Source: an uncultured Gemmatimonadaceae bacterium (GTDB lineage Bacteria; Gemmatimonadota; Gemmatimonadetes; Gemmatimonadales; Gemmatimonadaceae). Taken from it: 64,000 nt of DNA. Location: positions 704,001 to 768,000 of the forward strand of contig CAWFQK010000004.1 of the NCBI GenBank assembly GCA_963817955.1, given 5' to 3'. The first letter of the stretch is position 1. Every line of letters starts with the position of its first letter. The position numbers and the translations under genes are program-made. This document shows positions 1-42,191 of the stretch, piece by piece. Under the pieces are notes generated by a model that was given only the letters and a program-made list of their open reading frames with translations, did not search any database and was not told the DNA's origin.

Positions 1-232
1 GCCTGCTCGCGCGCCCTGGGCCAGTTCTCCGGATCAAGGCTGGTGGGGGCTGGCAACTCGGTTGGAGTCATCCCGTAGAATCAAGGGGTGCAGTCGACGT
101 GCTCGAGTACGCGAGTGGTGGAGTGGTAGAGTGGGAGGGGCCCCGCAAATCATCGGGTGGGATAGCGGCGCAAATGAATTGTAGCAGCCCGCCGCAGGCC
201 GCCGCAAGCGTGACGTCCAGGGTCCGATCTCG

Positions 233-3200
233 CTACGCGGTGGGGAGCTGATGCGCCGCATCGAGGAGCGCCTGCACTCTCACGAGCGAGTCCGCGGTCT
301 CCTGCTCGCCTGACATGTACACCGCCTCGCCACTCGTGCTCGGGAAGAAGAAGGAAAAGCGTGACAGCGCCGAGCCGGTGAGTGCCGTGAGGGCGGCGGA
401 GTAGACATCGCGCTGAACGCGATACGAATCGCCGATCTCTTGCTCTCGGCCCTCCGCCATGCCATGCGATTTGTAATCGAGGATCTCGAGTCCGCCGTCG
501 CACTGGGCCACGAGGTCCAATGCTCCCCGGATCAGCGTCACGCCACCATTGGAGCGAGCAAACCAGGTGAAGGCCAGCTCACGCTCGGAACGATCGGCGA
601 TGCACATTCGCTTGACTGACGCGTGAGCCCGCGTGGCGTCGATCATCCGGCGGAGCCGAGGCACCGCTTCGCAGATCCGTGGGGACAGCGCATTGTCGCC
701 GAGCTGCGCGCAAAGTTCGCGCTCCAGATATTCGTCGAGATCCGCGTCATCTCGATTGTGCTCCAGCGCTCCATGCAGCACGGTGCCCAAGACAATCCCC
801 GGGATCCACTGCCCAGCCGACGAGAGCTCAGCCGTACCTGTGAGAACCGCGTGCGCAGAGTCATCGAGGCCGCTCCGGTACCGCTCGCGATACGCCTTCG
901 GATCAGCATGCAGCAGCATGAGCTGCGTCGCCGAGCGTGCAGGGAGTGGCGCAATCGCGGACAGCGAAGCGATCCTCACCGAGAGAGCCTTCGCGACGTC
1001 TGGCGGCAGACTGGCGGCGCGTGTCTGCTCCAGCGTCGGCAGGGTGCGCGCAAGGTCGAGAGCCTCACTCTGGGGCTCCAGCATCGTCTCGCCGAGCGTC
1101 CACCGCTCGCCGCCATACGCATACGTGAAGTGGTCCTCCTCGGGCTCGAGCGCACGGAGCAACCAGTGCGGCACCATCTTCGCGGCCGACTCGGACGCGA
1201 GATGCGCTCTGGCCTCATCGACAGCGTTAGCGCCAGCGCACAGGATCAGGCGGTCCTGAGCGCGTGTCGTCGCGACGTACCACAGCCGCTTTTCCTCAGC
1301 CTCCGACAGCGCGACATCTCGCTGACGCAGACACTCGAAGGCACCGGCGGCAACAGCCGTCTCGTCACTTCCCGCTACCGAGTGCGTCAGTGCGATCCCC
1401 GCGATTGGATCGGCATAGAATGTGGGCATCTTCAGGATATTCACGATCTTACAATCGAGTGAAGCGAGAAATACGATCCGCCACTCGAGTCCCTTCGCGC
1501 CGTGCACCGTGCTCAGCGTGACGACATCCTCACCCGCCGTATAGAGCGCCGCGTCGCCGTCTCGCGCGGCTCCGTCCTCTCGCTCCTCCATGAACGACAG
1601 GAATTCCTCGACGCTTGCATTCGGCTGTCCCTCGGCGGTCCTCACGAGTTTTCGCAGATTGGAAAGTGCCTGCTCGCCGCCCGATTCGGCCAGCAACTGC
1701 ATCGAGTACCCACTCGCGATGAGCACATGATCGATCAGCGCGGCAACGGGCATCCGATCGCGCATCAGGCGCGCGGCGCCCAGCCAACGCGAGGCTTGCC
1801 TGGCCTGGGGCTCCTGACCATCCGCCGCAAGTCCGAGCATCGCCGAGAATGGCTCCCCTCTGTGATCCGTGCGGAAGCGATAGAGCGACTGATCCGACAC
1901 GCCAACAAAGGGAGAGCGCAACAATCCGATCCACGCGACGTCGTCGTGAGGGTTGATCAGCGCCGTCAGGAGGAGACGTACATCGCGGATCTCTCGGCGG
2001 CTATACAAGCCGGAGCTACCAGCGACATAATGAGGGATGCCGAGCTTACGGAACACGGTTTCGTAGGCAGGCAGCGCGGTGCGCGTCCGGAACAGAATCG
2101 CGATGTCACGATAATGGATGCGCCGCTTCTCGCCGGTGCGGTCCACCGCAAGATGATCGGTGCCCTTCTCTACCATCTCGCGAATGCGCGTCCCCACGAT
2201 CGCCGCCTCGATGTTTCGCTTTTCGTCTGCCGTGCCGACTGTTGGGACGGCCAGCAGCTCGAGATGCTCCTCCAGAATCGCGGGCGGACGGTGCGCCACG
2301 AGCGGCGTGTACGCCACCTCGTGCCCCACCGCCATGACCGCTGGGCGCCCAATTCCGATCAGCCCATCGAAAGTTGCATTCACGTAGCCCAGGATCGGCG
2401 CGCGGCTGCGGAAGTTTGTGTCTAATGTGATCGGCTGAATGCCGCGCGATGCAAACTCGGTGCTGACCTCCTTCCAGAGCGACACATCCGCGCGCCGAAA
2501 GCGATAGATGCTCTGTTTGGGGTCGCCGACAATGCACAGCCAGGGCGCAACTACCGGCGCATCCACCGGCGCATCCACCGGCGCAGCACCCGTGTCGCCC
2601 GGCTCGATGCCGCAGATGCGGTAGGCGATGTCGAGCTGATCGCGGTCGGTGTCCTGGAACTCGTCGATGAAGAGCCACTTGAGCCGGCGCTGGACGACCT
2701 TCAACACATCAGGCCGTCCATCCAGCACAGAGCGAGTTCTTGCGATCAGAGCATCGAAGTCGAGCTTGCCCTCTTGCGCGAGTCGTGCATCGAGCGCCGC
2801 ACGCGCCTCGCTGGCGATCGTGAGCAGGGTGCACGCCACTCGCGCTGCCGCCGAATCCACGTCCGGACGCCAGTTGCCTACGTCCACGCCACAGCCCCAC
2901 CCTTCCCGCTGCTCGTCGATGCAGCGCTGCAGCTGCTCGAGACGAGGGGCTCCCGCAACCGACCATGCGGCCATTGCTTCGCTGGCGATGGTCCCTCGCG
3001 AGACGATCCGCGCGATCTCCCGCTCCGCCGCCGCGAGGCCGACGACCTCGGCCAGCTCGAATGCGGATTCGCGTTCCTCATTGAGGGCAGCGTGAAGCGC
3101 CGTCCTCGCCGCTTCCGCGGCGAACTGCCTTCCCTCCCCCTCATCAGCGATCTGGAATGCCGGGTCGAGTCCGACGCGGAGCGCGAACTCGCGCAGCAGC

Positions 3201-3595
3201 TGTCCGCAGAAGCTGTGTATCGTCCCCACACGCGCGCGGTCCACTTCATACACCCGGTTCCGCCACGTCAGCTCCGACTCGGCATCGCCTGCCCGCATGT
3301 GGAAATCGGCGATCAGTCGCATCCGGTCACGGAGCTTTCGCTTGAAGTCAGCCGCCGCCGCGTTCGTGAATGTGATCGCAGCAATCTCTGACAACTCGCA
3401 ACGGCGAATCGGCGTGTGCCCGGGCGCCCGGTCGGCACCAAGCGAGTAGACGATCTTGTCTACCAGTGTTGTCGTCTTGCCGGAACCGGCGCCCGCCTCG
3501 AGCAGCAGGTGCCCCTCGCGGACGATCGCCGCCAATTGGTCTGGTGTGGGCGACGGCTCGCCATCGAACGGTGTGTCACGCACGTGGTTCACCAT
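233..3595 (-). CDS. addA: AddA-like UvrD/RecB-family helicase-nuclease
   Basis: Walker A AGAGSGKT, AITFTNAAA, IDEFQD, VGDPKQSIYRFR, TVHGAKGLE, YVATTRA, and C-terminal RecB-type nuclease motif G.LD...LDYKS. ATG at 3595 overlaps the upstream gene's end. Confidence 0.88.
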   Translation of the reverse strand: MVNHVRDTPFDGEPSPTPDQLAAIVREGHLLLEAGAGSGKTTTLVDKIVYSLGADRAPGHTPIRRCELSEIAAITFTNAAAADFKRKLRDRMRLIADFHMRAGDAESELTWRNRVYEVDRARVGTIHSFCGQLLREFALRVGLDPAFQIADEGEGRQFAAEAARTALHAALNEERESAFELAEVVGLAAAEREIARIVSRGTIASEAMAAWSVAGAPRLEQLQRCIDEQREGWGCGVDVGNWRPDVDSAAARVACTLLTIASEARAALDARLAQEGKLDFDALIARTRSVLDGRPDVLKVVQRRLKWLFIDEFQDTDRDQLDIAYRICGIEPGDTGAAPVDAPVDAPVVAPWLCIVGDPKQSIYRFRRADVSLWKEVSTEFASRGIQPITLDTNFRSRAPILGYVNATFDGLIGIGRPAVMAVGHEVAYTPLVAHRPPAILEEHLELLAVPTVGTADEKRNIEAAIVGTRIREMVEKGTDHLAVDRTGEKRRIHYRDIAILFRTRTALPAYETVFRKLGIPHYVAGSSGLYSRREIRDVRLLLTALINPHDDVAWIGLLRSPFVGVSDQSLYRFRTDHRGEPFSAMLGLAADGQEPQARQASRWLGAARLMRDRMPVAALIDHVLIASGYSMQLLAESGGEQALSNLRKLVRTAEGQPNASVEEFLSFMEEREDGAARDGDAALYTAGEDVVTLSTVHGAKGLEWRIVFLASLDCKIVNILKMPTFYADPIAGIALTHSVAGSDETAVAAGAFECLRQRDVALSEAEEKRLWYVATTRAQDRLILCAGANAVDEARAHLASESAAKMVPHWLLRALEPEEDHFTYAYGGERWTLGETMLEPQSEALDLARTLPTLEQTRAASLPPDVAKALSVRIASLSAIAPLPARSATQLMLLHADPKAYRERYRSGLDDSAHAVLTGTAELSSAGQWIPGIVLGTVLHGALEHNRDDADLDEYLERELCAQLGDNALSPRICEAVPRLRRMIDATRAHASVKRMCIADRSERELAFTWFARSNGGVTLIRGALDLVAQCDGGLEILDYKSHGMAEGREQEIGDSYRVQRDVYSAALTALTGSALSRFSFFFPSTSGEAVYMSGEQETADSLVRVQALLDAAHQLPTA

Positions 3596-6500
3596 GACTT
3601 CACTCGCTCCTCGCGACACACGTCGCGGAAGTCGCAGTAACGCAGGCAGTCCACCTTCTCGGGCGCGCGAGCCGGAAAGCGGCCCGCCGTGATGCCATCG
3701 CTGATGGAGAGCGCCAGGCCGGCCGCGCCGTCGATCGTTGCTTGCGCCTTCAGTTGCGTCGCATTGCCGAGCTCCTTGACGCCCGCTTTGACCACGGAGC
3801 AGCGATCGAGTGGGGCCTTTCGCTCCAGCCCGTGGACAAGTTGATAGGCGCCGCCCCAGATGCGAGCCTTCGGTTCGATCTCTCGCAAGGCGGCGATGTA
3901 CAGCGCAAGTTGCAGCACCGCGCCGGCGGGCTGCAGGTTCGTGAGACCACTGAACGCGCTCCCCCCCGACTTGTGGTCCACTACATAGAGGTACTCCTCG
4001 GCACCCGCGACCAGCATGCGGTCGACACGATCGATCCGGCCACGCAGCTTGATCGTTCGCCCTCCACTCTCCAGGACGACGACCGGTGACTCGGCGCCGT
4101 CTACACCGAAGCCCTGTTCCATGCGCAACGGCACGCGCGGTGCCTTCTTGTTCGCCGTCATCTCCCAGACGACGTAGTCTGCGAGCGTAGCAGCCATCTC
4201 TCGAGCGCGCCCACGCAAGATTCCGCGTTGGGCACTTTCACCGGGCACCAACTCCACCTCGCACTCGTCTCGCGACGATCGTGCGAGCGCGGTCAGCATT
4301 GACCGGAATGCAGCGCCTCGTCACCGAACTCGCTCACGAGGCGCCCGTACACTCGCCCTAGCACCGCGTGCATCACCGCGCCCTGGTATCGTGCGCCCTC
4401 CTCGTCCTCGATCACCTCGGTCTGCCGGACGCCGAGCGCGTACTTGGCAAAGAAGGAGAAGGGACAACGACCGTACGCCTCGAACTGCGTCGCACTCCAC
4501 ACCCGATGGCCATAGTCGCGGCGGAGCACATCGAGAAGTGCCGGTTCCTCGACGAGCCCGTTCCAGGAGTGTGCCAGCTCGCTACGGTCGAACTCCGGCG
4601 CACGCGCGGCGACACGCATCGCGGCACGCGTGTCGGCAACGCCGGCCAACGTCAGCAACCGCTCGACCTCTTCCACTCGCTTCGCCTCACGAGCGGAGAA
4701 CCCGAGCAGCGCATTGCGCTGGCACGCATCGAGCTGGCACACATCGACCCCAAGCGAGCGCGCCGTCAGCAATTCGAGTTCGTGGAAGCTCCAGACTTCG
4801 TCAACCGAGCTGGGGATGACGTACGAACCCGGGATGCGAATGACCCAGTCGGAAGCCTTCGCCCCTGGCTCCGCGCCGCCGAGCCTCGCGTCATAGCGAG
4901 AGACGACCTCGTCCAGGTAGGCCGCACCGAGTTGGGGCGCGCCGTTCGCATCCGCGTAGGAATAACTCAACGCGAGCGAACGCCGCGCCGATCGTGCCAG
5001 GGAATACCAGAGCGCCGCCTCGCGGCTGAACCAGATGCGGGCTGGCTCAGTGGGCAGACCCTTCGCGAAGAGCTCCACTTTCTCATCGTCAGCGATCAGC
5101 CCGTCCGGCGGAGGCTCAGCCGGAAAAGCGCCGACACTCATGCCCACCACGAACACGTGCTCGAACGACCGGCCCTCCGCGGCGAGCGCCTCGAGCAGAT
5201 GCACACCGCCGGCGATTCCCGTTGGGACGGTAACCTCATTCTTGGAGAGGGTGGCCTGGAGCGCCTGCACCCAGTCGCCGAGCGTCAATGCCCGCTCGCC
5301 ATCTGGATCGTGTACGAGGGCACGCTTCCAACTCAGGAGCACCGCCTTGGCCTCCTTCAGAGCGGAAGCGTCGATCCGCGCGGCGGAAACAAGGGGCAAC
5401 GGCGATTCATCGGTCAGCGTCGGAGTTGCGTTGATCGCGAGGCCGAGCAGACCATTGTCCATTCCCGCCCGTGCCGCGCCCGCGGAGTCAGCGCCGATCG
5501 CACGGAGCGTCAACGTGATCCAGTCGGTTGCTCGCCGCGCCTCCGTGAACGATGACATATGAGCGTCCACCTGGCGTATCCCGTCGATGGCAGATCGCAG
5601 TCTGTCAGGGTCCGGGCCCTCGAACTCATCGGCATTCGCTTGCGCTTCGGCCTCGAGACGCTCCAGTGCGGCTATCCATTCGGTCAAGCCACTCGGGCGG
5701 AGTTGCGACGCCGCGTAATCGAGTACCCGTACGTCGAGGTGCGTGGTGAAGTAGGGCGATCCCCCAAGTTCGCGAATACCCAACCAGGTCCACCCGTCCG
5801 CGGCGGCGTGCAGGCAGCGCAGCAGTGCCGCGATCACCGGGACATCGGTCAGATTGTGCCTCAGGCGCGCGGAGAACGGGATGCCATACCGCGCGAATAC
5901 GTCGGCTGCCGATGTCAGATAGGGCCGAGCATCGCGGGCAACGACGGCGATGTCGGACGGTCGCGTCGTCTCTGCTTGCCCTGAGCTGAGCAGGCTCTTG
6001 ACCGTGCGCGCGACATGCTCGAGTTCGCGAATGATGTCTGGCGCCGCCGTGACCGAGACCTCCGATGAGGGGGATGCGGTGGCGCCGCCCAGTGTGAACA
6101 GCGTCGCTCCCAGGTGCCGGAGCGCTGGGGAGAGGGTGGCTTTGCTATCGATGACGCGTGTCTCGTCGGCGTGCTCGCGAAGCCATGCCTCTACGTCGCG
6201 CTCCTCGGTACCAGGAGTACCGGTAGCACCAGTCGCGTGGTTCGAGTCAGCGATGTAGACGCGGATCTCCTCGATGAAGGGAGCTGCGTGCAACGCCTGA
6301 AGAAGCACGCGCCACCCACGCCGCAGATCGGCCAGTCCGTAGATGTCGATCGAGCGCTTCTCTCCGACCGCACGAAGCGGGCGCCGTAATCCTTCTCTGG
6401 CGATCGTTGGACGCTCGGCGATCGCATGCGCCGCCTGGAGCAAGCCGTCTCGCCCGTCCGTGCGTGCGACGCCGGCGCGTAACGGCAAGGCGGCGAGGAT

Positions 6501-6983
6501 CGCGAGATATCGGCCATATACGGCTGCGATGTCAGCGTTGCGCTTTCCTTCCCACTCGCCATGCTGCGCGGCGGCGAGGCGCTCCGCCGCGCCGGCATCC
6601 GTGACTCCAGCAGCGACCAGATCGCCGAACAGACGATCGAGCGACTCCGCGACCGTTGCGCGAATGGAGGTGGCGCCGAGTCCCGAGAGCGAGACGTCGC
6701 GCATGGCACGCCGGATCAACGCCTCGCGCTCCAGGGCATCGAGCGGGGCAAGGTCGCCGGCAAACAGCGCCGGGAGGTCCGCGAAGACGACGATCGGCTG
6801 GCCGAGCCAGCCGATCGCTGAACCACTTGCGGCGAGCTGGTGGACTGCGTCACGGAGTCCGCCCTGACGGACCGCAAGGAGAGGCAACGGCTCGACGCAG
6901 GGGCCCGGCGAGCAGAACGGCGCGGCGGCAGCGCTGAGAAGCGCGTGGGCATCCGCGCCCGAGATACTGATGAGTCGCGCCAT
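3589..6983 (-). CDS. addB: AddB-like PD-(D/E)XK nuclease subunit, split by a frameshift near 4295
   Basis: ORFs 4293-6983 and 3589-4299 together give WSATQFEAYGRCPF, LRGRIDRVD, VDHKSG, LQLALY and C-terminal CxxCxxxxxC. Directly upstream of addA. Confidence 0.78.
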
Positions 6984-6985: not shown

Positions 6986-8284
6986 TCAGCTCGAGAGTGG
7001 CGGCCGGAGCTCCGGAGCGACGAGCGCAACGGGCATCACCTCCAGCGCATTCAACGGAAGCAGTTCCTTGGTCCTGCCTGCACCGAGCGACTGGAAACGC
7101 CGCGCCTGAGGCAGCACGCGTTTCTCGAGCGAGCCAACTGCCTTGTTGTAGGCGTGCACCGACTTGCCGAGGTGGTCGCCGACGTCGTCGAAGTGCTCGG
7201 CCAGTGTGCGGATGCGCTCGTACAGTTCGCGCCCCAGTTCACTGATCGTTTGTGCATTCTCGGCGATGGCTTCCTGACGCCAGCCGAAGGCGACCGCCTT
7301 GAGCAGTGCAATGAGCGTGGTCGGCGTAGCGATGATCACATTGTGCTCGAACGAGTGCTCGAATAACGCCGGGTCGAACTCGAGCGCGACGCTGAAGAAC
7401 GCCTCACTCGGGAGAAAGAGCACGACGAACTCTGGAGCATGGTCGAACTGCTCCCAGTAGGCCTTCCGGCTCAATGCCTCGATGTGTTTCTTGACACCGA
7501 GCACATGCTCCACACAGAGCTGCTTCCTCCGCTCGTCGTCCTGACAATTGACTGCTTCCAGAACCGCGGTTGCCGGGGTCTTGGCGTCAACGACGATCGT
7601 TTTCCCGCCCGGGAGACGGACCACCATGTCCGGACGCAGCTTGCCGTCGTCGCTCTCCACGGTATGCTGCGTCGTGAAATCGCAGTGTTCCAGCATCCCC
7701 GACAACTCGACGACGCGCTTGAGCTGGAGCTCGCCCCAGGCGCCGCGGACGTTCGAGCTGCGAAGCGCCTTCGAGAGATTCGCGGTTTCGCCCCGGAGCA
7801 CGTCGCTAGCCACTGACATCAACTGGATCCGTTCGGTGAGTGACGCGAATGACTCCGCCCGTGCGATCTCGATGTCGTGCAGCTTCTTGTCGTACTTTTC
7901 GAGTCCATCGCGGATTGGCTTGACGAGGCTCTGGATCGCCGTTTCCTTATCGGCCAGCTCGGCCTGCGCGGAAAGGCGAATCCGTTCGAGCTCCGTACGA
8001 GCAAGCAGAAGGAACTGTTCGTTGTTGCTTTTCAGTGCCTCGCCGCAGAGAGACTGGAAGGATTCCTTGAGTTGGGTCTGCGACTTCGTCAGATCTTCCA
8101 TCCGGCGCTCGGCCACGACGAGCTGCGCGCGAAGCTCGGCTTCGCGCACGGCAGCTTGGCTCGTCATTTCGCTCACCGTCTGCGCGCCCTGGGCGGCAGA
8201 CAGCTTTCTGTAGACCAGGAAGAAGAGCGTTGCGCCTAACCCTGTACCGGCCAGGAAGAGCAAGACCACGATAACTGGCGGCAT
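6986..8284 (-). CDS. rmuC: DNA recombination protein RmuC
   Basis: N-terminal TM helix and coiled coil, then [32 protein letters not shown] and [10 protein letters not shown] motifs. Confidence 0.92.
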
Positions 8285-8605
8285 TGGAAGCCTATTCGAA
8301 AGCGGGAATTACTGCTCCTGAACCTCGAGGATCACGATCTTCCTGCCAGGTGAGGCCGCACGAACTCCGTGAGTGTTTCCTGGTCTACAATTGACTCGGA
8401 CATCAGACGATTGGCTATGGCATCCAGGAGTGGGCGGCGCTACTGCAGCGGCTCGGGGTTGTCGCAGTGAGTATTATGGCCGAGCGATGCACCGTCGCGC
8501 TTGATGCGTTCCTCCGCTGTATGATGTACGGAGGGTCTGACAGGGACCAATCAGCACCGGCAGCCGGACGGTGGCTCACAGACTGTTGAACTACGAGTGA
8601 ATCGC
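8285..8605 (-). pseudogene. Deleted remnant of the 60-aa gene and peptidase M41 3' end (third copy of the repeated module)
   Basis: Colinear similarity with 14818-15325 and partly 25356-25680, with an internal deletion at about 8345. Confidence 0.75.
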
Positions 8606-8607
8606 CG

Positions 8608-9925: not shown

Positions 9926-11194
9926 TCACGGCATCGGCATTCCGAGGCGCTTGGCCAGCGCGCTCGCCGTCTCCCGCACCGACGTGCTGAGCTTGTCCAG
10001 CATCTGGGGCGCACCCCCGACACGTGACACATCCTGTAGGACCTCAGGAAGGCCAGAGCGGATACGGTGCACGACGTCATCGGCCAGATCCGTCACCAGT
10101 GCCGCCGGCAAGCTGAACTCACGCGCAGCGGTCCTGAGGCTCGCGCGCGTCAGTGCTTGTGGAAGCGTCGTGCCGCAGAAGTGAAGCGCGAACTCGCGGT
10201 CAAGGTTCTCATACACCGCGGTGACCACGACATCGTATGCCGGCGCGAGCCGAACCCGGTCCGCACTCACGTATACGACGCTGATGTTCTTTGCGTGGGC
10301 GTCATAGTTCCCCATCGCGGCGTTCGCCATCGCCCATCGGAAGAGGAGTTCGCGATCCTGAAGCGGGTTCGCGCTCGCACGATTCAGCACCGCGCACAGA
10401 TCGAGGTAGGTGGGGGCGTTCAACTTCGCATACTTGTTTCGGGACAAGCGTCCCGTCAGCTGACACCCATCCTCAGCATGTCGCCGCTGGACGTGCCCCT
10501 CCGGCGTGACCGCACGGTCGAAGCGGGCCGACTCATGACAGTCGGTGGCGACGACACATGGGGCGCTCGAGGCCGTCTCGACTCCCGCCGATTGCATCAG
10601 GCGCATCCCGACCATTTCGGCTTCGAGGAGACCGGGGAAGTCCTGGCCTGGCCGTTTGACGACGACCGTCGTGGGAGCCCCATTCCTCGGAAGTCGGTAC
10701 TCCGGGTGCTCACCGCCGACGGGCGGCATGCGCCAGAGCGCAAGCTTCGGCTGTGCACCGGAGAGTGATGCGCGTCCGGCGATTTGGCGCAGTTGCCCCC
10801 GCGCGTTCGTGAAGGCGACGCTCAGCGCTGGGGCAGACACGTCGTCGTACTCGGGCTTCACGGGCGGTGATTCACCCTCAGGCCAGAGGTGCAGCGCCCC
10901 GGCGCACTCACCACCGACGACGCCGAGGAGACCGACGGTGTCACCGGGGTCGTGTTTCGTCGCCTGCCCAAGCGTGCTACGGAGTGTGCCCTCGGGTAGG
11001 AGGTTCTCGAAGACCGCTGCTGCCTCCAGCCCGATATACGGCTTCGCGCGAACCGGACACGTGAAACCCACAGCGGATTCCGGACGCGCCTCAGCGACGA
11101 CCTCGGCGTCGTAGGTGAACCGCACCGCTCCGTCGGGCGTTGTGTCGAGCACGCCGACGCGTCGCGCGTCGCGCCACACCGTGAGACCGGTCAT
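9926..11194 (-). CDS. hipA: HipA-family Ser/Thr kinase toxin
   Basis: FENLLPEG, SLSGAQPK, RFDR, NYDAHAKNIS and LAPAYD motifs. Confidence 0.88.
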   Translation of the reverse strand: MTGLTVWRDARRVGVLDTTPDGAVRFTYDAEVVAEARPESAVGFTCPVRAKPYIGLEAAAVFENLLPEGTLRSTLGQATKHDPGDTVGLLGVVGGECAGALHLWPEGESPPVKPEYDDVSAPALSVAFTNARGQLRQIAGRASLSGAQPKLALWRMPPVGGEHPEYRLPRNGAPTTVVVKRPGQDFPGLLEAEMVGMRLMQSAGVETASSAPCVVATDCHESARFDRAVTPEGHVQRRHAEDGCQLTGRLSRNKYAKLNAPTYLDLCAVLNRASANPLQDRELLFRWAMANAAMGNYDAHAKNISVVYVSADRVRLAPAYDVVVTAVYENLDREFALHFCGTTLPQALTRASLRTAAREFSLPAALVTDLADDVVHRIRSGLPEVLQDVSRVGGAPQMLDKLSTSVRETASALAKRLGMPMP

Positions 11195-11502
11195 GCATCA
11201 TCTCCACGCGCCGACTGCGAGGGGTCGCGCGGCACGAGGATCACGTCGAACCCGAGGTCGGTGAGAACACGCAGGGTGAGATCGAGTTGCGACCCCCCTT
11301 CACCGCGCTCCAAGCCGCCGAGCATGCTGAGACTCACGCCGAGCCGTCGCGTTGCATCGACCTGCCGTCCGAGGGCGCGCTCGCGGGCCACGCGCACGAC
11401 ATCGCCAACGTCCTTCGGCGTGAAGACACGAACTCCTCGAGCGGCAGCGTCATGCGGCGCTGCTGGCAATTGGGTGAGGTCCGGTCTTCTTGTTCGGGGC
11501 AT
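11191..11502 (-). CDS. hipB: HipB-like HTH antitoxin
   Basis: XRE-like HTH (VRVARER..LGVS..LERG); ATGA overlap with hipA. Confidence 0.75.
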   Translation of the reverse strand: MPRTRRPDLTQLPAAPHDAAARGVRVFTPKDVGDVVRVARERALGRQVDATRRLGVSLSMLGGLERGEGGSQLDLTLRVLTDLGFDVILVPRDPSQSARGDDA

Positions 11503-13270: not shown

Positions 13271-14227
13271 CTACTGGAACGCCTCTTCCAGCAGCCTCAA
13301 CTGCTCCGCGAGTTGCTGTCTGACTGACTCCGGTGCCAGCACCTCTGCCTCCGGCCCATACTGCAACACGTGCCGCATCGCCCAGTGCTCGTCGGCGAGC
13401 GGATGCTCCAGCGTCAGGCTGCCGTCCGGGGCAACGTGCTTCCCTTCCCGCTCCGCGATCCATCCGGCAATACGCGGCGAATAGCGCACAACGAGTGTCT
13501 CGACGCGCTCCGTCTCGAAGAGACGGGTGCCAGTGATGATCTCATCGACTGAATAGTCGGCAGCAAGCTCGAAGGTCTCGTCGGTCTGCGCCACCGACTC
13601 CATCCGGTCGAGGCGGAAGACTCGCAGCGCCTCGCTGGTCTGGCAGAACGCCACCATGTACCACATGCCGCGGGCGAACACGAGGCTGTACGGGCAGACG
13701 ATACGCGATCTCGACGTCGTCGATGCGCCGGCACGATAGCGTATCGCGAGCTTGCGCCGCAGGCGATGGGCGGTCTGAATGGACGCGAGGTGATCGGCAC
13801 CAGCGGCCGAGATCTCCGCGTGCTGTACGCCTTCCAGGCGGTCATTGACCGGCAGTCGCGTGATCGCCTCCCGCAGGCGCTCGAGCGCGCGGTCTACTGC
13901 CGGCCATTCCTCCGGCGTCCGCTCGCGTCGCAGGAGGGCAAGCCCAAGCTCCAATGCGCACAGCTCGCGCATCGTCAGTCGCATTGGTCGCAGGAAGTGC
14001 GTCGTGAATGCACTCAATTCCCTGTCGTCCCACTCGAGGCTCAGGCCGGCGACGAATCCGCTCGGTTCGTCGAAGCGTTCGCCGAGGGAGATCACGTCAT
14101 CCAGCAATGTCTTGCGGGACACGCCCAGTCGTTCCGCAATGTCATCGATGGCGTGGGCCTCGCCGTCCGCGACTTGCGGAATGAGGAGGAGAATGCGATT
14201 GAGCGCGTGCGCGGCGGTGTCGCTCAT
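13271..14227 (-). CDS. PafC-like HTH-WYL-WCX regulator (intact copy)
   Basis: N-terminal wHTH, FLRPMRLT, WYMVAFC...LRVFRLDRM (WYL), HVLQYGPEAEVLAP (WCX). Confidence 0.9.
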   Translation of the reverse strand: MSDTAAHALNRILLLIPQVADGEAHAIDDIAERLGVSRKTLLDDVISLGERFDEPSGFVAGLSLEWDDRELSAFTTHFLRPMRLTMRELCALELGLALLRRERTPEEWPAVDRALERLREAITRLPVNDRLEGVQHAEISAAGADHLASIQTAHRLRRKLAIRYRAGASTTSRSRIVCPYSLVFARGMWYMVAFCQTSEALRVFRLDRMESVAQTDETFELAADYSVDEIITGTRLFETERVETLVVRYSPRIAGWIAEREGKHVAPDGSLTLEHPLADEHWAMRHVLQYGPEAEVLAPESVRQQLAEQLRLLEEAFQ

Positions 14228-14787
14228 GCGTCCACCGGTGAGTCCGCATGTGCGCCCGTCACCGGCGAGCCGAGTGCGGCCGCCGCGATCACCGCGCCGC
14301 TCGAGCCGCGAAACTCCACCGTCACCGAGACGACCTCATTGTCGCCGAGTTCCCACGCGAGTCGGGAGCGAGCGTGCTCGCGGAGCACGAACGATCCCGG
14401 AATCTCGTACTGGGGCACCTCGCGGTCGGGAGCAAGCTGCTTCACCCCCGCTATGCGATTGACGCGGAAGTTGCGCAGTGCCCCGCGATCGACGTCTCGC
14501 GCGACGAGATACCAGTGTGCGTTGAGAAAGAAAAGCCCATAGGGGAAGTCCGCGGTGCGCAGACGATACCGAAAATCCGTGTCGCCGTCCTCTCCTTCGC
14601 TTTCGATGGGCACGCCAAAGGCTTTCAGATCCCGCTTGTCGCGCTCGAACTGGCGCTTGGCGGTCGCCCTCTCCTTTCCATTGTAGGCCGGGACTTCGCG
14701 GGCGATCTCCTCGAAGGTGATGGCGCGCTGACGACCGAGCAGGGCGGCGAGGAGGTCGATCCAGCGTTGCAACTTGGACGATGACAT
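14224..14787 (-). pseudogene. PafB-like WYL protein with two in-frame internal deletions
   Basis: Near-identical to 24219-25325 but 187 aa instead of 368 aa (126-aa and 55-aa segments missing). Confidence 0.85.
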
Positions 14788-14841
14788 GCGCTACGCGGTG
14801 GGGAGCTGGTGCGGCATTGGAAGCCTATTCGAAGGAGAAAC

Positions 14842-15024
14842 TTACCGCTCCTGAGCCTCGAGAATCACGATGTTCCTGAACGTCGGGTGCTGCCGTTGGA
14901 GCTCCGCTTGGATCGCGAGTTCCGACTGACCGTAGACCGTCAAGACGGCCCGATTGACGCGTCGCTGGTCCGAGCCATCGGTCGAGTGCTCATAGATGAC
15001 GCTGAATGTCTGATAGTGCGCCAC
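14842..15024 (-). CDS. Conserved 60-aa hypothetical protein (copy 1)
   Basis: GAGGAGG SD; 59/60 aa identical to 25380-25562, with mostly synonymous differences. Confidence 0.7.
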   Translation of the reverse strand: MAHYQTFSVIYEHSTDGSDQRRVNRAVLTVYGQSELAIQAELQRQHPTFRNIVILEAQER

Positions 15025-15663
15025 TCAAGTCACCTCCTCTGTCCGGGGGAGGTGAGGCCGCACCAACTCCGTGAGTGTTTCCTGGTCTACAATAGATTCC
15101 GACATCAGCCGCTTGGCTATGGCATCCAGGAGTGGGCGGCGCCGCTGTTGCGGCTCGGGGTTGTCTCCGTGAGTATGATTGGCTGAGCAATGCACCGTTT
15201 CGCTTGATGCGTTCCTCCGCTGTATGATGTACGAAGGCCCTGACAGCCGGGCGGCTCGCGGGACGAATCAGCACCAGGAGCCGGACGGTGGCCCTCAGAC
15301 TGTTGAACTACGAGTGGATCGACAGCGCGGTGGCGAGAATAGTCGGCGCGGGTCGGCAAGCGCCGCTGAGCGCGGTCGCGCCGGCGACCGCCCTGTGCAG
15401 GAATAATCGGACTATGCTGCCGATCGGCGCGATGGAAATCCGCGTTCTCCTACCCGCTGGCCTCGGGTACGCGGTCGAAGTGCAGCTTCCCGAGGGAGGA
15501 TTCCACGTGGACCACTTGGCGACGCTACGCATCAAGAGCCCTGGCTTCTGCGCGCCATCCACCAACGAACGCTCATGAGGCCGTCTGAGCCTTCCAACCA
15601 TTTCCGGTTGTCAAGCTGTCCAATCCGTCTGGACATCGGTTGTGCCCTCGGAGTGTGCCGCTT

Positions 15664-23263: not shown

Positions 23264-24222
23264 CTACTGGAACGCCTCTTCCAGTTGTCTCAACCGCGCC
23301 GCGAGCTGCTGTCTGACTGACTTCGGTGCCAGCACCTCGGCCTCCGGCCCGTACTGCAACACATGCCGCATTGCCCAGTGCTCGTCCGCGAGCGGATGCT
23401 CCAGCGTCAGGCTGCCGTCCGGGGCAACGCACTTCCCTTCCCGCTCCGCGATCCATCCAGCGATGCGCGCCGAGTAGCGCACAACGAGTGTCTCGGCGCG
23501 CTCCGCCTCGAAGAGACGGGTGCCCGTGATGATCTCATCGACTGAATAGTCGGGAGCAAGCTCGAAGTGTCTCGTCGGTCTGCGCCACCGACTCCATCCG
23601 GTCGAGCCGGAAGACTCGCAGCGCCTCGCTGGTCCTGGCAGAACGCCACCATGTACCACATGCCGCGAGCGAACACGAGGCTGTACGGGCAGACAATACG
23701 CGATCTCGAGGTCGTCGATGCGCCGGCACGATAGCGGATCTCGAGCTTGCGCCGCAGGCGATGGGCGGCCTGAATGGACGCGAGGTGATCGGCACCAGCG
23801 GCCGAGATCTCCGCGTGCTGTACGCCTTCGAAACGGTCATTGACCGGCAGTCGAGTGATCGCCTGTCGCAGGCGCTCGAGCGCGCGGTCTACTGCCGGCC
23901 ATTCCTCCGGCGTCCGCTCGCGTCGCAGGAGCGCAAGCCCAAGCTCCAATGCGCACAGCTCGCGCATCGTGAGTCGCATCGGTCGCAGGAAGTGCGTCGT
24001 GAATGCACTCACTTCCCTGTCGTCCCACTCGAGGCTCAGGCCGGCGACGAATCCGCTCGGTTCGTCGAAGCGTTCGCCGAGGGAGATCACGTCATCCAGC
24101 AATGTCTTGCGGGAGACGCCCAGCCGTTCCGCAATGTCATCGATGGCGTGGGTCTCGCCGTCCGCGACCTGCGGAATGAGGAGGAGGATTCGATTGAGCG
24201 CGTGCGCGGCGGTGTCGCTCAT
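23264..24222 (-). CDS. PafC-like WYL regulator (copy 2, frameshifted near 23570-23635)
   Basis: High identity to 13271-14227 but split by two +1 insertions; may be a pseudogene or sequencing error. Confidence 0.82.
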
Positions 24223-25325
24223 GCGTCCACCCGTGAGTCCGCCTGTGAGTCCGCCAGACTGCGATCGTAGAGCTTGCGCGTCGTCTGGAGCACCTCGCGG
24301 AACTGCGCGATGATCTCGGGCGGACCAAGCGGTATGGCTTCACCGGCGAAGGAGAGCAGCCACCACACGAATCGATCGGGCCGCCGCACGGCAAATATCC
24401 GGTGGGTCGGTGCGTCCGTCACCGGCGAGCCGAGTGCGGCAGCCGCGATCACCGCGCCGCTCGAGCCGCGGAACTCCACCGTCACCGAGACGACCTCATT
24501 GTCGCCGAGTTCCCACGCGAGTCGGGAGCGAGCGTGCTCGCGGAGCACGAACGATCCCGGAATCTCGTACTGGGGCACCTCGCGGTCGGGAGCAAGCTGC
24601 TTCACTCCCGCTATGCGATTGACGCGGAAGTTGCGCAGTGCACCGCGATCGACGTCTCGCGCGACGAGATACCAGTGTGCGTTGAGAAAGAAGAGCCCAT
24701 AGGGCTCGACCGTCCGAGCGGTGGCGCTGTCATTCGCGACCGCGCGATACTCGAAGCGGACCAGCTTCCGACCGTGCAGGGCGTCGCCCAACGCCTCGAG
24801 CACCCGCCTGTCCGCTGGCGCGCGGGCGGGCACAATCACGGTGTCGTCCGTCGCCGACACGGCTCCGATGGGAAGATCGTACGCCAGCTTCCGCATGGCG
24901 CTCGCCACGTCCGCCGCCAGGGGTGCGTTCCCGAGCTGCTCCGCTCGCGCCGCGCCCTCGGCCACCGCTTGCAGTTCATCCGCGTCGAAGCTCAGGCTCT
25001 TGAGCGAATGATACCCGAACCGATCCACCCGTGAGGGTGTCGACTTCCCGCGTGGCGTGGTGACGGACAGATAGGGCAGGTAGAAGTCCGCGGTGCGCAG
25101 ACGATACCGAAAATCCGTCTCGCCGTCCTCTCCTTCGCTTTCGATGGGAACGCCAAAGGCTTTCAGATCCTTCTTGTCGCGTTCGAACTGGCGCTTGGCG
25201 GTCGCCCTCTCCTTTCCATTGTAGGCCGGTACTTCGCGGGCGATCTCATCGAAGGTGATGGCGCGCTGACGACCGAGCAGCGCGGCCAGGAGGTCGATCC
25301 AGCGTTGCAGCTTGGACGATGACAT
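24219..25325 (-). CDS. PafB-like HTH-WYL-WCX regulator (intact)
   Basis: RQFERDKKDL..FG.PI, RTVEPYGL...HWYLVARD..R.ALRNFRVNRI, WCX tail; ATGA overlap with the pafC-like gene. Confidence 0.9.
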   Translation of the reverse strand: MSSSKLQRWIDLLAALLGRQRAITFDEIAREVPAYNGKERATAKRQFERDKKDLKAFGVPIESEGEDGETDFRYRLRTADFYLPYLSVTTPRGKSTPSRVDRFGYHSLKSLSFDADELQAVAEGAARAEQLGNAPLAADVASAMRKLAYDLPIGAVSATDDTVIVPARAPADRRVLEALGDALHGRKLVRFEYRAVANDSATARTVEPYGLFFLNAHWYLVARDVDRGALRNFRVNRIAGVKQLAPDREVPQYEIPGSFVLREHARSRLAWELGDNEVVSVTVEFRGSSGAVIAAAALGSPVTDAPTHRIFAVRRPDRFVWWLLSFAGEAIPLGPPEIIAQFREVLQTTRKLYDRSLADSQADSRVDA

Positions 25326-25379
25326 TCGCTACGCGGTGGGGAGCTGGTGCGGCATTGGAAGCCTATTCGAAGGAGAAAC

Positions 25380-25562
25380 TTACCGCTCCTGAACCTCGAG
25401 AATCACGATGTTCCTGAACGTCGGGTGCTGCCGTTGGAGCTCCGCCTGGATGGCGAGTTCCGACTGACCGTAGACCGTCAATACGGCCCGATTGACGCGT
25501 CGCTGGTCCGAGCCATCGGTCGAGTGCTCATAGATGACGCTGAATGTCTGGTAGTGCGCCAC
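25380..25562 (-). CDS. Conserved 60-aa hypothetical protein (copy 2)
   Basis: GAGGAGG SD; paralogue of 14842-15024. Confidence 0.7.
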   Translation of the reverse strand: MAHYQTFSVIYEHSTDGSDQRRVNRAVLTVYGQSELAIQAELQRQHPTFRNIVILEVQER

Positions 25563-27450
25563 TCAAGTCGCCTCCTCTGTTCTGGGTAGGTGAGGCCGCA
25601 CCAACTCCGTGAGCGTTTCCTGGTCTACAATAGACTCCGACATCAGCCGATTGGCTATGGCATCCAGGAGCGGGCGATGCTGGGCAAGCATCTCCTTCAC
25701 CACTCCGTATTCTGTAGAGAGGAACGCGCGCACGAGTTCCTCGATGTGTGCCGCTTCCGAGCTAATGTCGAAAGGTGTGGAAATAGACGGAAGGCGGTGA
25801 CACCTTCTCGGGTGAGTCCAATCACCCCCGGGAGAATCCCGGCAACGAAAAGGAGCCACCGCCCATGAAGAAGATGAAGGATGAGCCAGCCACGTCAAGC
25901 GCGACGTGGGACACGTTGGAGTCCTTTGCGCGGATGCATATCCAAGGATTCATTCAGCAGCTGTTGGAAGAGGAGGTGACCGAGCTGCTCGGGCGACAGA
26001 AGTCCGCGCGCCGCAGCGCGGTGGATGCGCCGACCGGGGCGCGCAACGGGCACGGGAAGCCGCGAAACCTCTCGCTCATGAATGGGACCATCGTGGTGCG
26101 CCGGCCACGGGTGCGCGACCTGGATGAGCTGTTCGTGAGCCGCCTGCTGCCGCTCTTTCAGCGGCGCACCAAGGAACTGAGCACGCTGTTGCCCGAGCTG
26201 TATTTGCATGGCCTCGCGCTCGGGGATTTCGAACTCGCGCTCCGCGGCCTGTTGGGCGACGGGGCGCCGCTGAGTGCGAGCTCGCTCGTGCGCCTCAAGG
26301 CGACGTGGCAGGCGGAGTATGCGGTGTGGCAGCGGCGCGACCTGAGCGACCTCAAGCTGGTGTATCTCTGGGCGGACGGCGTGTATGTGAAAGCCGGGCT
26401 TGAGCACAGCAAGGCAGCGCTCCTGGTGTTGATCGGCGCCGACGCGGAGGGGCGGAAACACGTTCTCGCGGTGACCAGTGGCGAACGCGAATCGGTGGTG
26501 AGCTGGACCGCCGTGCTCCGCGACCTGAAGGCGCGCGGGCTCTGCGCCCCCAAGCTCACGATCGCCGATGGGCATCTCGGGCTCTGGGGCGCACTCGCGG
26601 CGATCTATCCGACGAGTGCCGAGCAGCGGTGTTGGAATCACAAGATACGGAATGTGCTCGACCTGGTGCCGAAGAAACGCCAAGCCGAAGTCACCGTGCA
26701 GCTCCAGCAGATCGCCGCGGCGGAGACACTGCGGGCGGCGGTGCGGCTGCGCGATGCGTTTGCCCGCACGTACCGTCGCGTGGTGCCCAAAGCCGTCGAG
26801 TGCCTCGAGCGTGATTGGGACCGCCTGGTCGCGTACTACGCCTTTCCGCAGGAGCACTGGAAGCATCTGCGCACGACGAACGTGATCGAATCACCGTTTG
26901 CCGCGGTGCGGCTCCGCACGATCCGCGGCGAAGCGCTTCAAGAAAGTCGACAATGCCACGACGTTGATCTGGAAAACCTTACTCGTCGTCGAACAACATT
27001 TCCGCAAACTGAACGCCCCGCACCTCTGTACCGACGTGTACGATGGCGCCGTGTTTCACGACGGTATCTGCACCGTGACCCCGACCCGGGAACGGATCGC
27101 CGCCTGACGCCTATTTACACACCAATTGACAAGAGCTCCCGCTTCCGAGGCGCAGATTGATACGCACGTCGTGACGCATATCGGCGTACGTGTCTCGATC
27201 ACCAGACTCGTACAGGAACTTGTACGATTCCACAACGGCACCCTTCAGGTTCGCAGACGGCAGGATGGATGAGTATTCCGGAACATTCTGGCCGTCGGAG
27301 TCGATGACGGCGACCAGGGCGTGTCCAGCCTCGTGGTACGCCGTCTGCCGGCGGATCGCTTCTATCTCCGTGGACGGCAACTCTGCCTCCTCGAAGCCGC
27401 GCAGGGTCAGGTTGACCAGATCGACGAACTCCAATTTGCGTTTCTCGCGT
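25563..27450 (-). pseudogene. FtsH-like peptidase M41 3' region, interrupted by IS256 and 5'-truncated
   Basis: AYHEAGHALV (27140-27434 segment) and L.QHRPLLDAIA.RL..E.IVD (25563-25758 segment) flank the IS. Confidence 0.75.
25759..27138 (+). mobile_element. IS256-family element with transposase (25865 to ~27107, frameshift near 26920)
   Basis: Imperfect terminal IRs (GAGCT..TGTC....GGTGTG.AAATAG), 8-bp target duplication CCGCTTCC at 25751-25758 and 27139-27146, and motifs YLWADGVY, QRCWNHK, RTTNVIES. Confidence 0.95.
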
Positions 27451-27737: not shown

Positions 27738-28064
27738 ATGCGAATCGGGAAACCGAAGAAGGCACTCCGCAAACTGCGCGGCACGAAGCGTGGCAACGAG
27801 GTGCCGAATCGGCGGACACGAGTTTCGAACGGGAAGCCCTCATGGTTCCCGACGGATATCGCGAGCGTTGCCAAGGCCGTTGGTAAGCTCGTCACTTCGG
27901 AGGTCACGAAGTGCCTAGTGACCGAGGCTTACAACGTCATCCGCGAATACGTATCGAGACTCACCATCCGCACTACACTCCGCTTCGGCGGCTGCACCAT
28001 ACGACTAGACCGAGCGCTCTCGAAAGTCATGAGCGGCTCGGTCTTGTCAATTCCTCCGGTATGA
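27738..28064 (+). CDS. 108-aa orphan protein coupled to the RT (candidate effector)
   Basis: Strong SD GAGGAGGT at 27722-27729; TGA overlaps the RT ATG (ATGA at 28061-28064); basic N-terminus and an amphipathic central helix. Confidence 0.55.
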   Translation: MRIGKPKKALRKLRGTKRGNEVPNRRTRVSNGKPSWFPTDIASVAKAVGKLVTSEVTKCLVTEAYNVIREYVSRLTIRTTLRFGGCTIRLDRALSKVMSGSVLSIPPV

Positions 28065-29164
28065 CGAACGCAGGTCGCAAGCTCGGACTTGGGAGTATCG
28101 CGGGTACGCTGTGCACAAAGATCGCGTGCCTCAGGAAGCACGCCGCTGAAGTGAACACTTCCTATTCGCGTTACCCGAAGAAGAAGTCGTCTGGCGGCCA
28201 TCGGTGGATAAGTACTCCATCTGATGAGCTGAAAGAGCTACAGGGTCGCCTTCGCGAGCGCATCCTCGAACCACTCTCCTCCACGCCCGAACTCCTCGCC
28301 GTGTTGATGCGAGACCCGCTCCGAAATGCTCGCCTGCATGAAGACGCCGCTCACATCTTGATGCTCGACTTGAAGGAGGCGTTCCCGTCAACCTCAGCGC
28401 GGCGTGTGAGAAACACTCTCGTTCGAGCTGGCATGGACTCTCCAGCGGCGCGACTCATCACAGAGCTGACTACATACCGCGACGAGCTTCCGCAGGGAGC
28501 CCCCACGAGCAACGCACTCCTCGACCTGGTTTTGCGCCCAATGGATAGAGCCATCGTTCGGTTCTGCAGACGGCGTGGTGTCCAATACACTCGCTACGCC
28601 GACAACCTTGCCTTCTCATCAGAGGAACCACTCAACTGCGTGGAGCGTTTCGTCCGTCGGAAGCTTGGGGAGTACGAATTCGAGATCAATCCGCCGGTGT
28701 ACGGAGGTCGTTCGGCTCCAGTGGACATAACCGGCGTACTCACTGGCAAGTCTCTCCGGGTTCGGCCGAAGACGATCGAGAAGACCAAGGCTCGTATCAT
28801 CGCCGCCGAGGCCACTGGCTCCGAGCCTGAAAAGGCGTCCGCGAGGGGGGCAATGGGCTGGGTCGTTCGTGTGAACCCTCGACAGGCGGCAGAACTCGTC
28901 TCCCAGACGCTTCCACCCGAAAGTGAACTCGCGAAAGCCCTGGCACCAAGACGTCGGCCTTCAGCTGTTGATAACAGCGTGAGTTGCGGCGAGCGACTGC
29001 GGATTAGCTCAACCTCGCCAAAGTGCCTCGACGGGGTCTACTCCGATTCCCTGATCTGTTCCGGACGGCACCCCATCCCGCCACATCGCGTACAGGATTC
29101 CTACGAGCCGCCGCTCCAGGGCGACCACCGCGATGCGTCAAGTGCGCGACATCACGCCGAGTGA
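28061..29164 (+). CDS. Retron-type reverse transcriptase with a YADN catalytic motif
   Basis: KKSSGGHRWISTP, LKELQ, NARLH (retron NAxxH), LDLKEAFPS, LPQGAPTS, YTRYADNLAFS, ITGV (VTG region), GWVVRVNP thumb. Confidence 0.88.
   Translation: MTNAGRKLGLGSIAGTLCTKIACLRKHAAEVNTSYSRYPKKKSSGGHRWISTPSDELKELQGRLRERILEPLSSTPELLAVLMRDPLRNARLHEDAAHILMLDLKEAFPSTSARRVRNTLVRAGMDSPAARLITELTTYRDELPQGAPTSNALLDLVLRPMDRAIVRFCRRRGVQYTRYADNLAFSSEEPLNCVERFVRRKLGEYEFEINPPVYGGRSAPVDITGVLTGKSLRVRPKTIEKTKARIIAAEATGSEPEKASARGAMGWVVRVNPRQAAELVSQTLPPESELAKALAPRRRPSAVDNSVSCGERLRISSTSPKCLDGVYSDSLICSGRHPIPPHRVQDSYEPPLQGDHRDASSARHHAE
29055..29140 (-). mobile_element. IS110-family transposase C-terminal remnant
   Basis: Minus strand reads RIAVVALERRLVGILYAMWRDG, typical of IS110 C-termini. 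Confidence 0.6.
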
Positions 29165-42091: not shown

Positions 42092-42191
42092 CCACTGCAG
42101 GTCCCGACCCTCCCAATACTCCGGACAAGCGGCCGAGCTCTGCCTATTACCTGAAACAAACCGGCCGGCCCTTGCGGACCGGCCGATTCTA

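Follow-up and report, generated by a model that had tools for sequence, protein, structure and literature searches.

Mycobacterial PafBC is a heterodimeric activator of helix-turn-helix (HTH)-WYL-WCX architecture that serves the LexA-independent DNA damage response, and regulator pairs of this type activate transcription at RecA-NDp-type promoters when triggered by single-stranded DNA (ssDNA). Published accounts describe PafBC as a heterodimeric activator triggered by ssDNA (PMC11804915; PMC6789036), the WYL regulators DriD and CapW are also reported to sense ssDNA (PMC9186387; PMC11662680), and for DriD the ssDNA arising from AddAB resection has been discussed as the signal (PMC9186387). Here we analyse a stretch of 64,000 nucleotides (nt) from an uncultured Gemmatimonadaceae bacterium (contig CAWFQK010000004.1 of assembly GCA_963817955.1, positions 704,001 to 768,000 of the forward strand; hereafter the window), in which two copies of pafB are each preceded by the same 27-nt open reading frame (ORF), the mini-ORF. 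We propose that the mini-ORF is most likely the scar of a deletion within an operon that had joined the helicase-nuclease genes addB and addA, together with the nuclease gene rmuC, to pafB and pafC.

The window locus shares with mycobacterial and actinobacterial PafBC (PDB 6sj9, 7p5x) the presence of two adjacent paralogous genes, the PafB half followed by the PafC half, and with mycobacterial PafBC a tie to a two-subunit helicase-nuclease, which in mycobacteria is the reported regulon member adnAB (PMC8682763). Unlike the actinobacterial pair, that of the Gemmatimonadota adjoins addBA, either in one operon or divergently, and not a pafA/proteasome locus (the genome, 94% complete, gave no match to the Pup ligase family PF03136, for which a Corynebacterium control was positive), and its spread is patchy and accessory (71 of 200 other genomes of the family). 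The genes found next to PafBC in the window and its relatives are addBA, an M41 peptidase gene, McrBC, and DUF2779 genes. The enzyme resembles AddAB, AdnAB, and RecBCD in having a superfamily 1 (SF1) UvrD-type AddA with a nuclease domain and an AddB nuclease, with Bacillus subtilis AddA as the best solved relative, but it differs from known AddAB in scoring far below the equivalog cut-offs, in being accessory (addA in none of four genus mates), and in having rmuC before it and likely regulators after it. BrxR, CapW, and DriD are likewise winged HTH-WYL-WCX regulators that lie beside the genes they control and are reported to sense ssDNA (PMC11662680; PMC9186387), and relatives of the window pair adjoin McrBC and other nucleases; those three are single-gene homodimers, whereas the window has a two-gene PafB/PafC pair beside AddBA and RmuC, which do not form a recognised defence system. 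With Shield (ShdA; PMC10270631) and with RmuC associated with reverse transcriptases the window shares an RmuC-family nuclease domain in an accessory island, but the window RmuC is full-length and canonical and is separated from addB by a 2-nt spacer. In the literature searched as full text, we found no description of PafBC in Gemmatimonadota and none of an addAB-pafBC or rmuC-addAB-pafBC gene cluster. The scar itself is ordinary genome decay, and what is new is the AddBA-PafBC linkage outside Actinobacteria, a variant of a known regulator-target relation.

The Probable Deletion Junction and Its Two Parents

Four features of the window define the junction:

25329..25355, minus strand: mini-ORF MPHQLPTA*, deletion junction, copy 2 (from junction anatomy and word counts)
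14791..14817, minus strand: mini-ORF, deletion junction, copy 1, identical to copy 2 at 27/27 positions
8278..8345, minus strand: start codon and leader of rmuC, to which the leaders of both mini-ORFs are homologous (59-60 of 68 nt)
231..256, minus strand: 3' end of addA (last six codons, stop, and 3 nt), from which the 3' half of the mini-ORF derives

Homology blocks were taken from BLAST and from an anchored comparison of the three junctions, and coordinates from tblastn and ORF lists. In both copies the mini-ORF is ATGCCGCACCAGCTCCCCACCGCGTAG on the minus strand, read as ATG CCG CAC CAG CTC CCC ACC GCG TAG, and the pafB ATG begins 3 nt after its stop codon (TAGCGAATG in copy 2 and TAGCGCATG in copy 1), the base after the stop codon differing between the copies. 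The 5' part of the mini-ORF and its leader match the start of rmuC, with 59 and 60 identical positions over the 68 nt of 8278-8345, and the 23-mer GCGGCATTGGAAGCCTATTCGAA (plus strand) has exactly three matches in the 4.53-Mb genome, namely the rmuC start and the two mini-ORFs. The 3' part matches the end of addA. Exact copies of the 20-mer CAGCTCCCCACCGCGTAGCG stand at 231-250, 14789-14808, and 25327-25346 and nowhere else in the genome, its 16-nt core has only three occurrences genome-wide, and no match to the 20-mer was obtained in 100 dinucleotide-preserving shuffles with up to two mismatches allowed. Including the preceding CGCA, the addA match covers 26 nt with a single mismatch, the synonymous CAT/CAC.

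The two parts meet in frame, rmuC giving ATG CCG C and addA giving (C)AC CAG CTC CCC ACC GCG TAG, with CGC (GCG on the plus strand) as the sole overlap, and the matching end points lie 8,051 nt apart in the surviving rmuC-addB-addA copy. The initial annotation, made from the letters alone, had reported the twin mini-ORFs and their two parents and had postulated an in-frame join at a GCG microhomology with loss of about 8 kb; alignment of the three junctions agreed with it in every detail that could be checked, and its interpretation is supported. The direction of derivation follows from the protein. The window AddA ends in ...VQALLDAAHQLPTA*, the AddA of a related contig (L114, described below) ends at the same position in ...LHALLDAAHALHAT*, and the AddA of another relative, G019, stops a few residues further on. 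Because the alignment with L114 shows the six residues encoded by the 3' half to be native to addA, the mini-ORF derives from addA and rmuC and not the reverse.

Undeleted Gene Order in Relatives

A scan with AddA of one genome per species recovered a 7,395-nt contig, L114, from a Gemmatimonadaceae metagenome-assembled genome (MAG; G201), in which rmuC, addB, addA, and pafB are contiguous, with identities to the window of 83% (rmuC, cut by the contig start), 60-70% (addB), 68% (addA), and 70% (pafB). Its spacings are those of the window, that is, 2 nt between rmuC and addB, a 7-nt overlap of addB with addA, and TAG CAC ATG leading into pafB; addB is a single ORF, and the first 33 or more residues of pafB reach the contig end. 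The initial annotation had taken absence of the contiguous order from all related genomes as a refutation, and L114 shows that the order does occur in one. The last 127 nt of L114 are the exact start of a pafB-pafC contig of the same genome (L120, 50% identity), which extends the row into pafC. Yet another G201 contig, L119, ends in the same 127 nt with different DNA upstream (unrelated intergenic sequence, not addA); two contigs sharing this end indicate an assembly graph with two alternative contexts for one pafBC, and G201 has either two pafBC copies or two strain variants, with and without addA directly upstream. In G019, the end of an addB-addA contig overlaps the end of an addA-pafB-pafC contig by 357 nt at 96% identity, giving addB-addA-pafB-pafC. 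The seven-gene ancestral operon claimed by the initial annotation (M41 peptidase, 60-aa gene, rmuC, addB, addA, pafB, pafC) stands from rmuC to pafB, and by overlap to pafC, but the full row of seven, with the M41 gene and the small gene (58 amino acids, aa, in the window), was found intact in no genome. G125 and L026 have rmuC-addB-addA and no pafBC, and at 72 of the 80 rmuC loci kept from 547 relatives rmuC is alone with respect to the queries used. A metagenome scan with AddA gave nine loci, all distant (25-35% identity) and none useful.

Among the contigs of four runs, the sole bridging record is a 24,798-nt contig from the soil-metagenome run X2, which matches 24900-25351 (30 differences) and 25378-25561 (9 differences) of the window at about 94% identity and carries 6,972 nt between the two matching parts, exactly at the position of the scar. 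The contig represents a close relative. Its first matching part takes in the 23 nt of the mini-ORF that derive from addA and its second is the 58-aa gene, and it has no match to the 26 nt of rmuC leader and start or to the M41 remnant. The length of the insert fits addB plus addA (6.7 kb in L114) and a short spacer better than it fits rmuC plus addB plus addA. A comparable order is seen in G181, where the 58-aa gene is followed by addB and then by addA.

The Three Units and Their Present State

The window contains one unit that retains rmuC and addBA, and two copies of the deleted unit with pafB and pafC:

233..3595, minus strand: addA, UvrD-type helicase with C-terminal PD-(D/E)XK nuclease (Pfam, NCBIfam, PDB 3u44_A 3.2e-53)
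3589..6983, minus strand: addB, PD-(D/E)XK nuclease subunit, split into ORFs 4293-6983 and 3589-4299
6986..8284, minus strand: rmuC (PF02646 2.8e-100, profile positions 2-290 of 291), single copy in the genome
8348-8436 and 15050-15138, minus strand: shorter M41 remnants
8578..8606, plus strand: dispersed genome repeat bounding the upstream block, also at 15295-15321
13271..14227, minus strand: pafC copy 1, intact, 318 aa (HTH_PafC, WYL, and WCX)
14224..14787, minus strand: pafB copy 1, 187 aa; compared with copy 2 it lacks two internal stretches, of 378 and 165 nt, both in frame
14842..15021, minus strand: 58-aa gene, copy 1 (98% identity)
23264..24222, minus strand: pafC copy 2, called as ORF 23407-24222, broken by two +1 insertions (23635, 23568)
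24219..25325, minus strand: pafB copy 2, intact, 368 aa (WYL and WCX)
25380..25559, minus strand: conserved small gene of 58 aa, copy 2
25563..25758, minus strand: remnant of a stand-alone M41 peptidase gene, covering about 65 C-terminal aa, cut by an insertion sequence (IS) at 25759
25759..27160, plus strand: IS256/Mutator-family element (transposase 25865-27160), the end of which at 25759 truncates the M41 gene

AddA has the helicase domains (UvrD-helicase 4.5e-46, UvrD_C 7.6e-30) and a C-terminal nuclease (PDDEXK_1 3e-11, residues 896-1099). Its partner addB is split by two +1 insertions near 4290-4340, within about 45 nt of each other, relative to L114; the Pfam PDDEXK_1 match covers the end of ORF 4293-6983 plus ORF 3589-4299, and the terminus carries a C-x3-C-x5-C cysteine cluster. 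Both fall below the NCBIfam equivalog cut-offs (addA at 273.2 versus 707.65 bits for addA_Gpos and 218.5 versus 860.75 for addA_alphas; addB at 70.1 versus 903.7), and by these scores the window AddAB is a distant subfamily. RmuC matches PF02646 over its full length and, with 167.6 bits against a cut-off of 810 in NCBIfam PRK10361, is not the Escherichia coli equivalog.

Copy 2 retains an intact pafB and copy 1 an intact pafC, and the two encoded proteins could together supply the heterodimer. PafB of copy 2 matches WYL (1.8e-21) and WCX (3.6e-04), with no Pfam HTH match at E 0.01, and its best PDB matches are residues 110-214 of the PafBC fusion structure 6sj9 (1.1e-22) and 7p5x_AY, which identify it as the PafB half. 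PafC of copy 1 matches HTH_PafC (1.3e-09), WYL (7.3e-21), and WCX (5e-16), and residues 345-651 of 6sj9 (3.2e-26) and 7p5x_AX, named PafC, identify it as the PafC half; pafB and pafC overlap by 4 nt as an adjacent paralogous pair. The two pafC copies differ by 28 nt in synonymous codon pairs and 18 nt in non-synonymous ones, which indicates that purifying selection acted on both during most of the period after the duplication and that their decay is recent.

The rmuC unit lacks 171 nt that cover the 58-aa gene (at 8346/8347) and keeps the same leader and M41 remnant. The 58-60-aa protein has 17 invariant columns in 10 aligned sequences and a confidently predicted strand-strand-helix-strand model (mean predicted local distance difference test score 91.9), which gave no PDB match at E 0.001; Pfam, NCBIfam, and PADLOC gave none either. 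The RNA-polymerase-interacting protein YkzG, its best PDB match, reached only E 0.1 and a template-modelling score of 0.51 and was not taken as evidence of relationship. Base 25759, where the IS cuts the M41 gene, is also the break point of many metagenome contigs.

How the Junction May Have Arisen

We propose an ancestral, translationally coupled operon of the order (M41 peptidase - 58-aa gene -) rmuC - addB - addA - pafB - pafC. About 8 kb would have been lost through a join at the CGC microhomology, from codon 3 of rmuC to the sixth-last codon of addA, and this join would have placed pafB-pafC directly behind the leader and start codon of rmuC. With the reading frame preserved across the join, a ribosome that initiates at the former rmuC ATG would terminate at the former addA TAG, 3 nt short of the pafB ATG, and the coupling that served pafB before the deletion would thereby be kept. 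The deleted unit would then have been duplicated, with a diverged sister unit keeping rmuC-addBA and losing pafBC and the 58-aa gene, and all units would now be decaying in an IS-ridden accessory region of about 45 kb beside two tRNA-Met genes. All three deletions upstream of the intact pafC of copy 1 (the scar and the two deletions in pafB copy 1) are in frame, for which chance would account about once in 27 cases, and they may reflect selection to keep translation entering the coupled downstream pafC.

Several observations weigh against this reconstruction. The seven genes in one row were seen in no genome, and at five of the six assessable loci of the closest AddA clade there is no pafBC downstream of addA within the flank covered (4.5 kb in L130; 10 kb in L132, L134, L135, and L136). 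The X2 insert, which is known by its length, falls 1,079 nt short of the 8,051 nt expected from the window. Nor is the surviving rmuC-addBA copy the direct parent, its leader being 87-88% identical and pafBC and the 58-aa gene being missing from it. The copies are also mosaic, with a breakpoint at 8436/15138 common to the rmuC copy and copy 1 and not to copy 2, whereas the scar is common to copies 1 and 2, so that at least one extra recombination among the copies is needed. The frameshifts of addB and of pafC copy 2 are paired single-base insertions, with about 45 nt between the two in addB and about 67 nt in pafC copy 2; assembly error could account for them, but not for the large deletions. 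In public runs the share of the words sampled from window 24900-25900 reached 12% at most, and no source reads spanning the junction were found. A consensus scan of 24900-26000, a kind of scan that is not informative in this phylum, gave no sigma-70-like promoter.

The mosaic structure bears on a different route to the same-looking product, ectopic (non-allelic) recombination between paralogous or separately acquired units. There are at least three related mosaic units in 26 kb, with the breakpoint linking the rmuC copy to copy 1 and the scar linking copies 1 and 2, and blocks are bounded by dispersed repeats and IS elements; a 3-nt overlap, however, is typical of illegitimate end joining or replication slippage and not of homologous exchange, and L114 has both partners in one operon, and we therefore regard ectopic recombination as unlikely. 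Much less credible still is a chimeric assembly of rmuC-region and pafB-region reads, even though the assembly is MAG-like, unverified, and in nine contigs, the best public run shares a fraction of only 0.12 of its words, and the paired insertions in addB and pafC copy 2 are suspicious. The 27-nt join is found in two copies that are 95-96% identical and differ by 4-5% in their flanks, in the base that follows the stop codon, and in large indels. An assembler would have had to make an identical chimera twice, which argues against the misassembly that the initial annotation had named as a possible refutation. We give equally little credence to the view that the mini-ORF is ancestral, as a pafB leader peptide, with rmuC-addB-addA inserted elsewhere, or that the 20-mer is a regulatory motif. 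The perfect conservation of the mini-ORF between the two copies, 3 nt before pafB, would suit such a role, but its 3' half continues the C-terminal helix of AddA and aligns to the end with L114 and less closely with G019, its 5' half coincides with the start of rmuC, both k-mers are confined to these places in the genome, and L114 and the alternative pafB upstream of G201:C292 have no mini-ORF. A deletion within an AddAB-PafBC operon is thus the explanation that we favour.

The dispersed repeat at 8578-8606, which marks the boundary of the upstream block in two of the three units, has 26 BLAST matches in the genome, its own place included; its core is GACTGTTGAACTACGAGTGAATCGCC, often followed by AGCAATCGGTTACGCGGCTGCGAAG, and it may be a miniature inverted-repeat transposable element or an IS end.

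Linkage of AddBA and PafBC Across the Family

In the sample of 200 other family genomes, the AddA type (E <= 1e-30) is present in 27 and PafB, as noted above, in 71. Both are present in 19 genomes, and in 13 of these they lie on one contig and at most 8.4 kb apart; in the other six they are on different contigs, mostly in fragmented assemblies, and eight of the AddA-positive genomes gave no PafB match. Twelve loci, comprising 11 of the 13 linked ones and the same-genus G287, were re-checked by tblastn, and all 12 have addB-addA and pafB-pafC. The two pairs are adjacent and co-directional in five (G107, G003, G056, G115, and G121) and divergent in five (G074, G020, G116, G158, and G180), the divergent pafB and addB start matches being 104-460 nt apart in four loci and about 1.2 kb apart in G116. 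In the last two, G287 and G161, the pairs run in the same direction with 4.7- and 8.4-kb spacers between them. Besides these 12, G181 has a convergent arrangement. Such linkage in three orientations across many genera is the classical signature of a regulator-target pair.

None of the 12 re-checked loci contains rmuC, the 58-aa gene, or the M41 peptidase gene, and since these genes are rare or absent in linked loci, AddBA plus PafBC is the robust core. Of 300 other family genomes, 2 contain the 58-aa gene, which makes up 8 clusters among 5.8 billion. The M41 and 58-aa genes are tied to the module by the window, by re-ordered neighbourhoods in G075 (M41, pafB, pafC, then a convergent 58-aa gene) and G181, and by the 58-aa gene upstream of the X2 insert. 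We rejected M41 as a regular member, as relatives of the stand-alone M41 protein of G075 occur in 2 of the 200 family genomes, G075 included, and in G130 the gene is on another contig than pafB. The 58-aa gene of G181 comes after a YbjN/TY-Chap1-like gene.

Seven loci were found with PafB as the query; of the six other than L005, two have addB-addA upstream, three a DUF2779 protein, and one an SF1 helicase that carries an RNase H-like domain. In a further genome of the same genus (L113, G177:C1, 6550-11747), PafBC immediately follows McrC, McrB (AAA_5), and a Pua-like protein, and a Pua-like gene also follows pafC in L001. A single WYL gene lies within about 4 kb of rmuC in L034, L035, L039, L042, and L093 (cyanobacteria-related and gammaproteobacterial MAGs), with 25-30% identity to PafC and directly upstream in L093, which hints at a wider WYL-RmuC association.

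Proposed Function

From the homology to mycobacterial PafBC, DriD, and CapW and from the conserved AddBA-PafBC neighbourhood, we infer that the HTH-WYL-WCX pair may sense ssDNA produced by end processing by AddBA, together with RmuC, and may control the adjacent addBA and also rmuC. The initial annotation had noted that mycobacterial PafBC activates DNA-repair genes including adnAB, which agrees with the reported dependence of adnA expression on PafBC (PMC8682763). In mycobacteria the link between PafBC and AdnAB is regulatory and in trans, and here the same kinds of genes are neighbours in a distant phylum, which suggests that control of DNA-end resection is an old and core job of PafBC-type WYL regulators. 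A role in repair or the damage response is the one toward which we lean, with reserve.

Defence is a possible role as well, though one we hold less probable. The module would then be an anti-phage or anti-plasmid cassette, with AddBA and RmuC as effectors and the WYL pair as a damage-sensing switch in the manner of BrxR or CapW. All its parts are accessory in the genus (of four genus mates, none has addA, none has a strong match to rmuC, and one has pafB), and the region holds a retron-type reverse transcriptase (PADLOC RT_II-A, 2e-43), HipA/HipB-like genes, and IS elements. Related PafBC pairs adjoin McrBC and the Pua-like gene (G177), DUF2779 (three loci), and the SF1/RNase H-like helicase (one locus). 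RmuC domains are reported in the Shield system (PMC10270631), the window RmuC matches PADLOC RTasRmuC at 9.8e-58, and WYL regulators are reported to co-localise with defence islands (PMC9122601; PMC11662680). On the other side, PADLOC found no complete system and only generic domains (GajB-like UvrD helicase, RTasRmuC, and WYL), with nothing for AddB and the 58-aa protein, and AddAB is a classical repair enzyme and PafBC activates repair genes including adnAB. More speculatively still, and with a rather low expectation that it will hold, AddBA-PafBC, optionally with RmuC, M41, and the 60-aa protein of unmatched fold, might be a mobile, self-regulating cassette that senses DNA ends and serves immunity against linear foreign DNA as much as repair, its WYL pair reading the ssDNA made by its own helicase-nuclease and thereby turning the cassette on, with the decayed copies acting as a split system, PafB coming from one and PafC from the other, and the in-frame scar selected for coupling to a captured start site.

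The divergent pafB-addB intergenic regions (100-460 nt in four of five loci) are ready sites for operator mapping and for the study of ssDNA-dependent regulation outside Actinobacteria, and the patchy, island-borne spread and the neighbours (RmuC, McrBC, DUF2779, and the retron reverse transcriptase) make the question of repair or immunity testable. The scar is also a worked example of how a few leftover codons allow a lost operon to be reconstructed.

Genomic Setting and Neighbouring Genes

As the initial annotation had surmised, the locus is island-borne. The accessory region of about 45 kb runs from about 2.7 kb before the window to about position 42,000 within it; this region has just scattered short matches in five genus mates, with several kb at 29-38 kb matched in G030 alone, and 42,000-59,000 is syntenic in five of five. 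Two tRNA-Met genes lie at the border (42017-42265), and the island carries IS256-family and other transposase remnants, its G+C content being not deviant. The initial annotation had also raised the matter of separate housekeeping addAB and rmuC genes. A second AddB-AddA pair (30% identity) does exist on contig C1, but it is present in just one of five genus mates and is not housekeeping in the genus, so that neither AddBA pair is core, and rmuC has no second copy.

The retron-type reverse transcriptase gene (27911-29164, plus strand; RVT_1 6e-12) lies beyond the IS beside pafB copy 2. Between the rmuC unit and copy 1 of pafBC is a HipA-like kinase gene (9926-11502, minus strand; HipA_C 1.9e-39, Couple_hipA 1.4e-19), with a small HTH gene upstream of it, the two being a likely toxin-antitoxin pair. 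Long arrays of degenerate 20-21-nt tandem repeats (families D1-D4) occupy 61700-63200, and short repeats of about 100 nt, 82-90% identical and in direct and inverted orientation, relate 48971-49409 to 63391-63516 and 51141-51191 within the conserved portion of the window.

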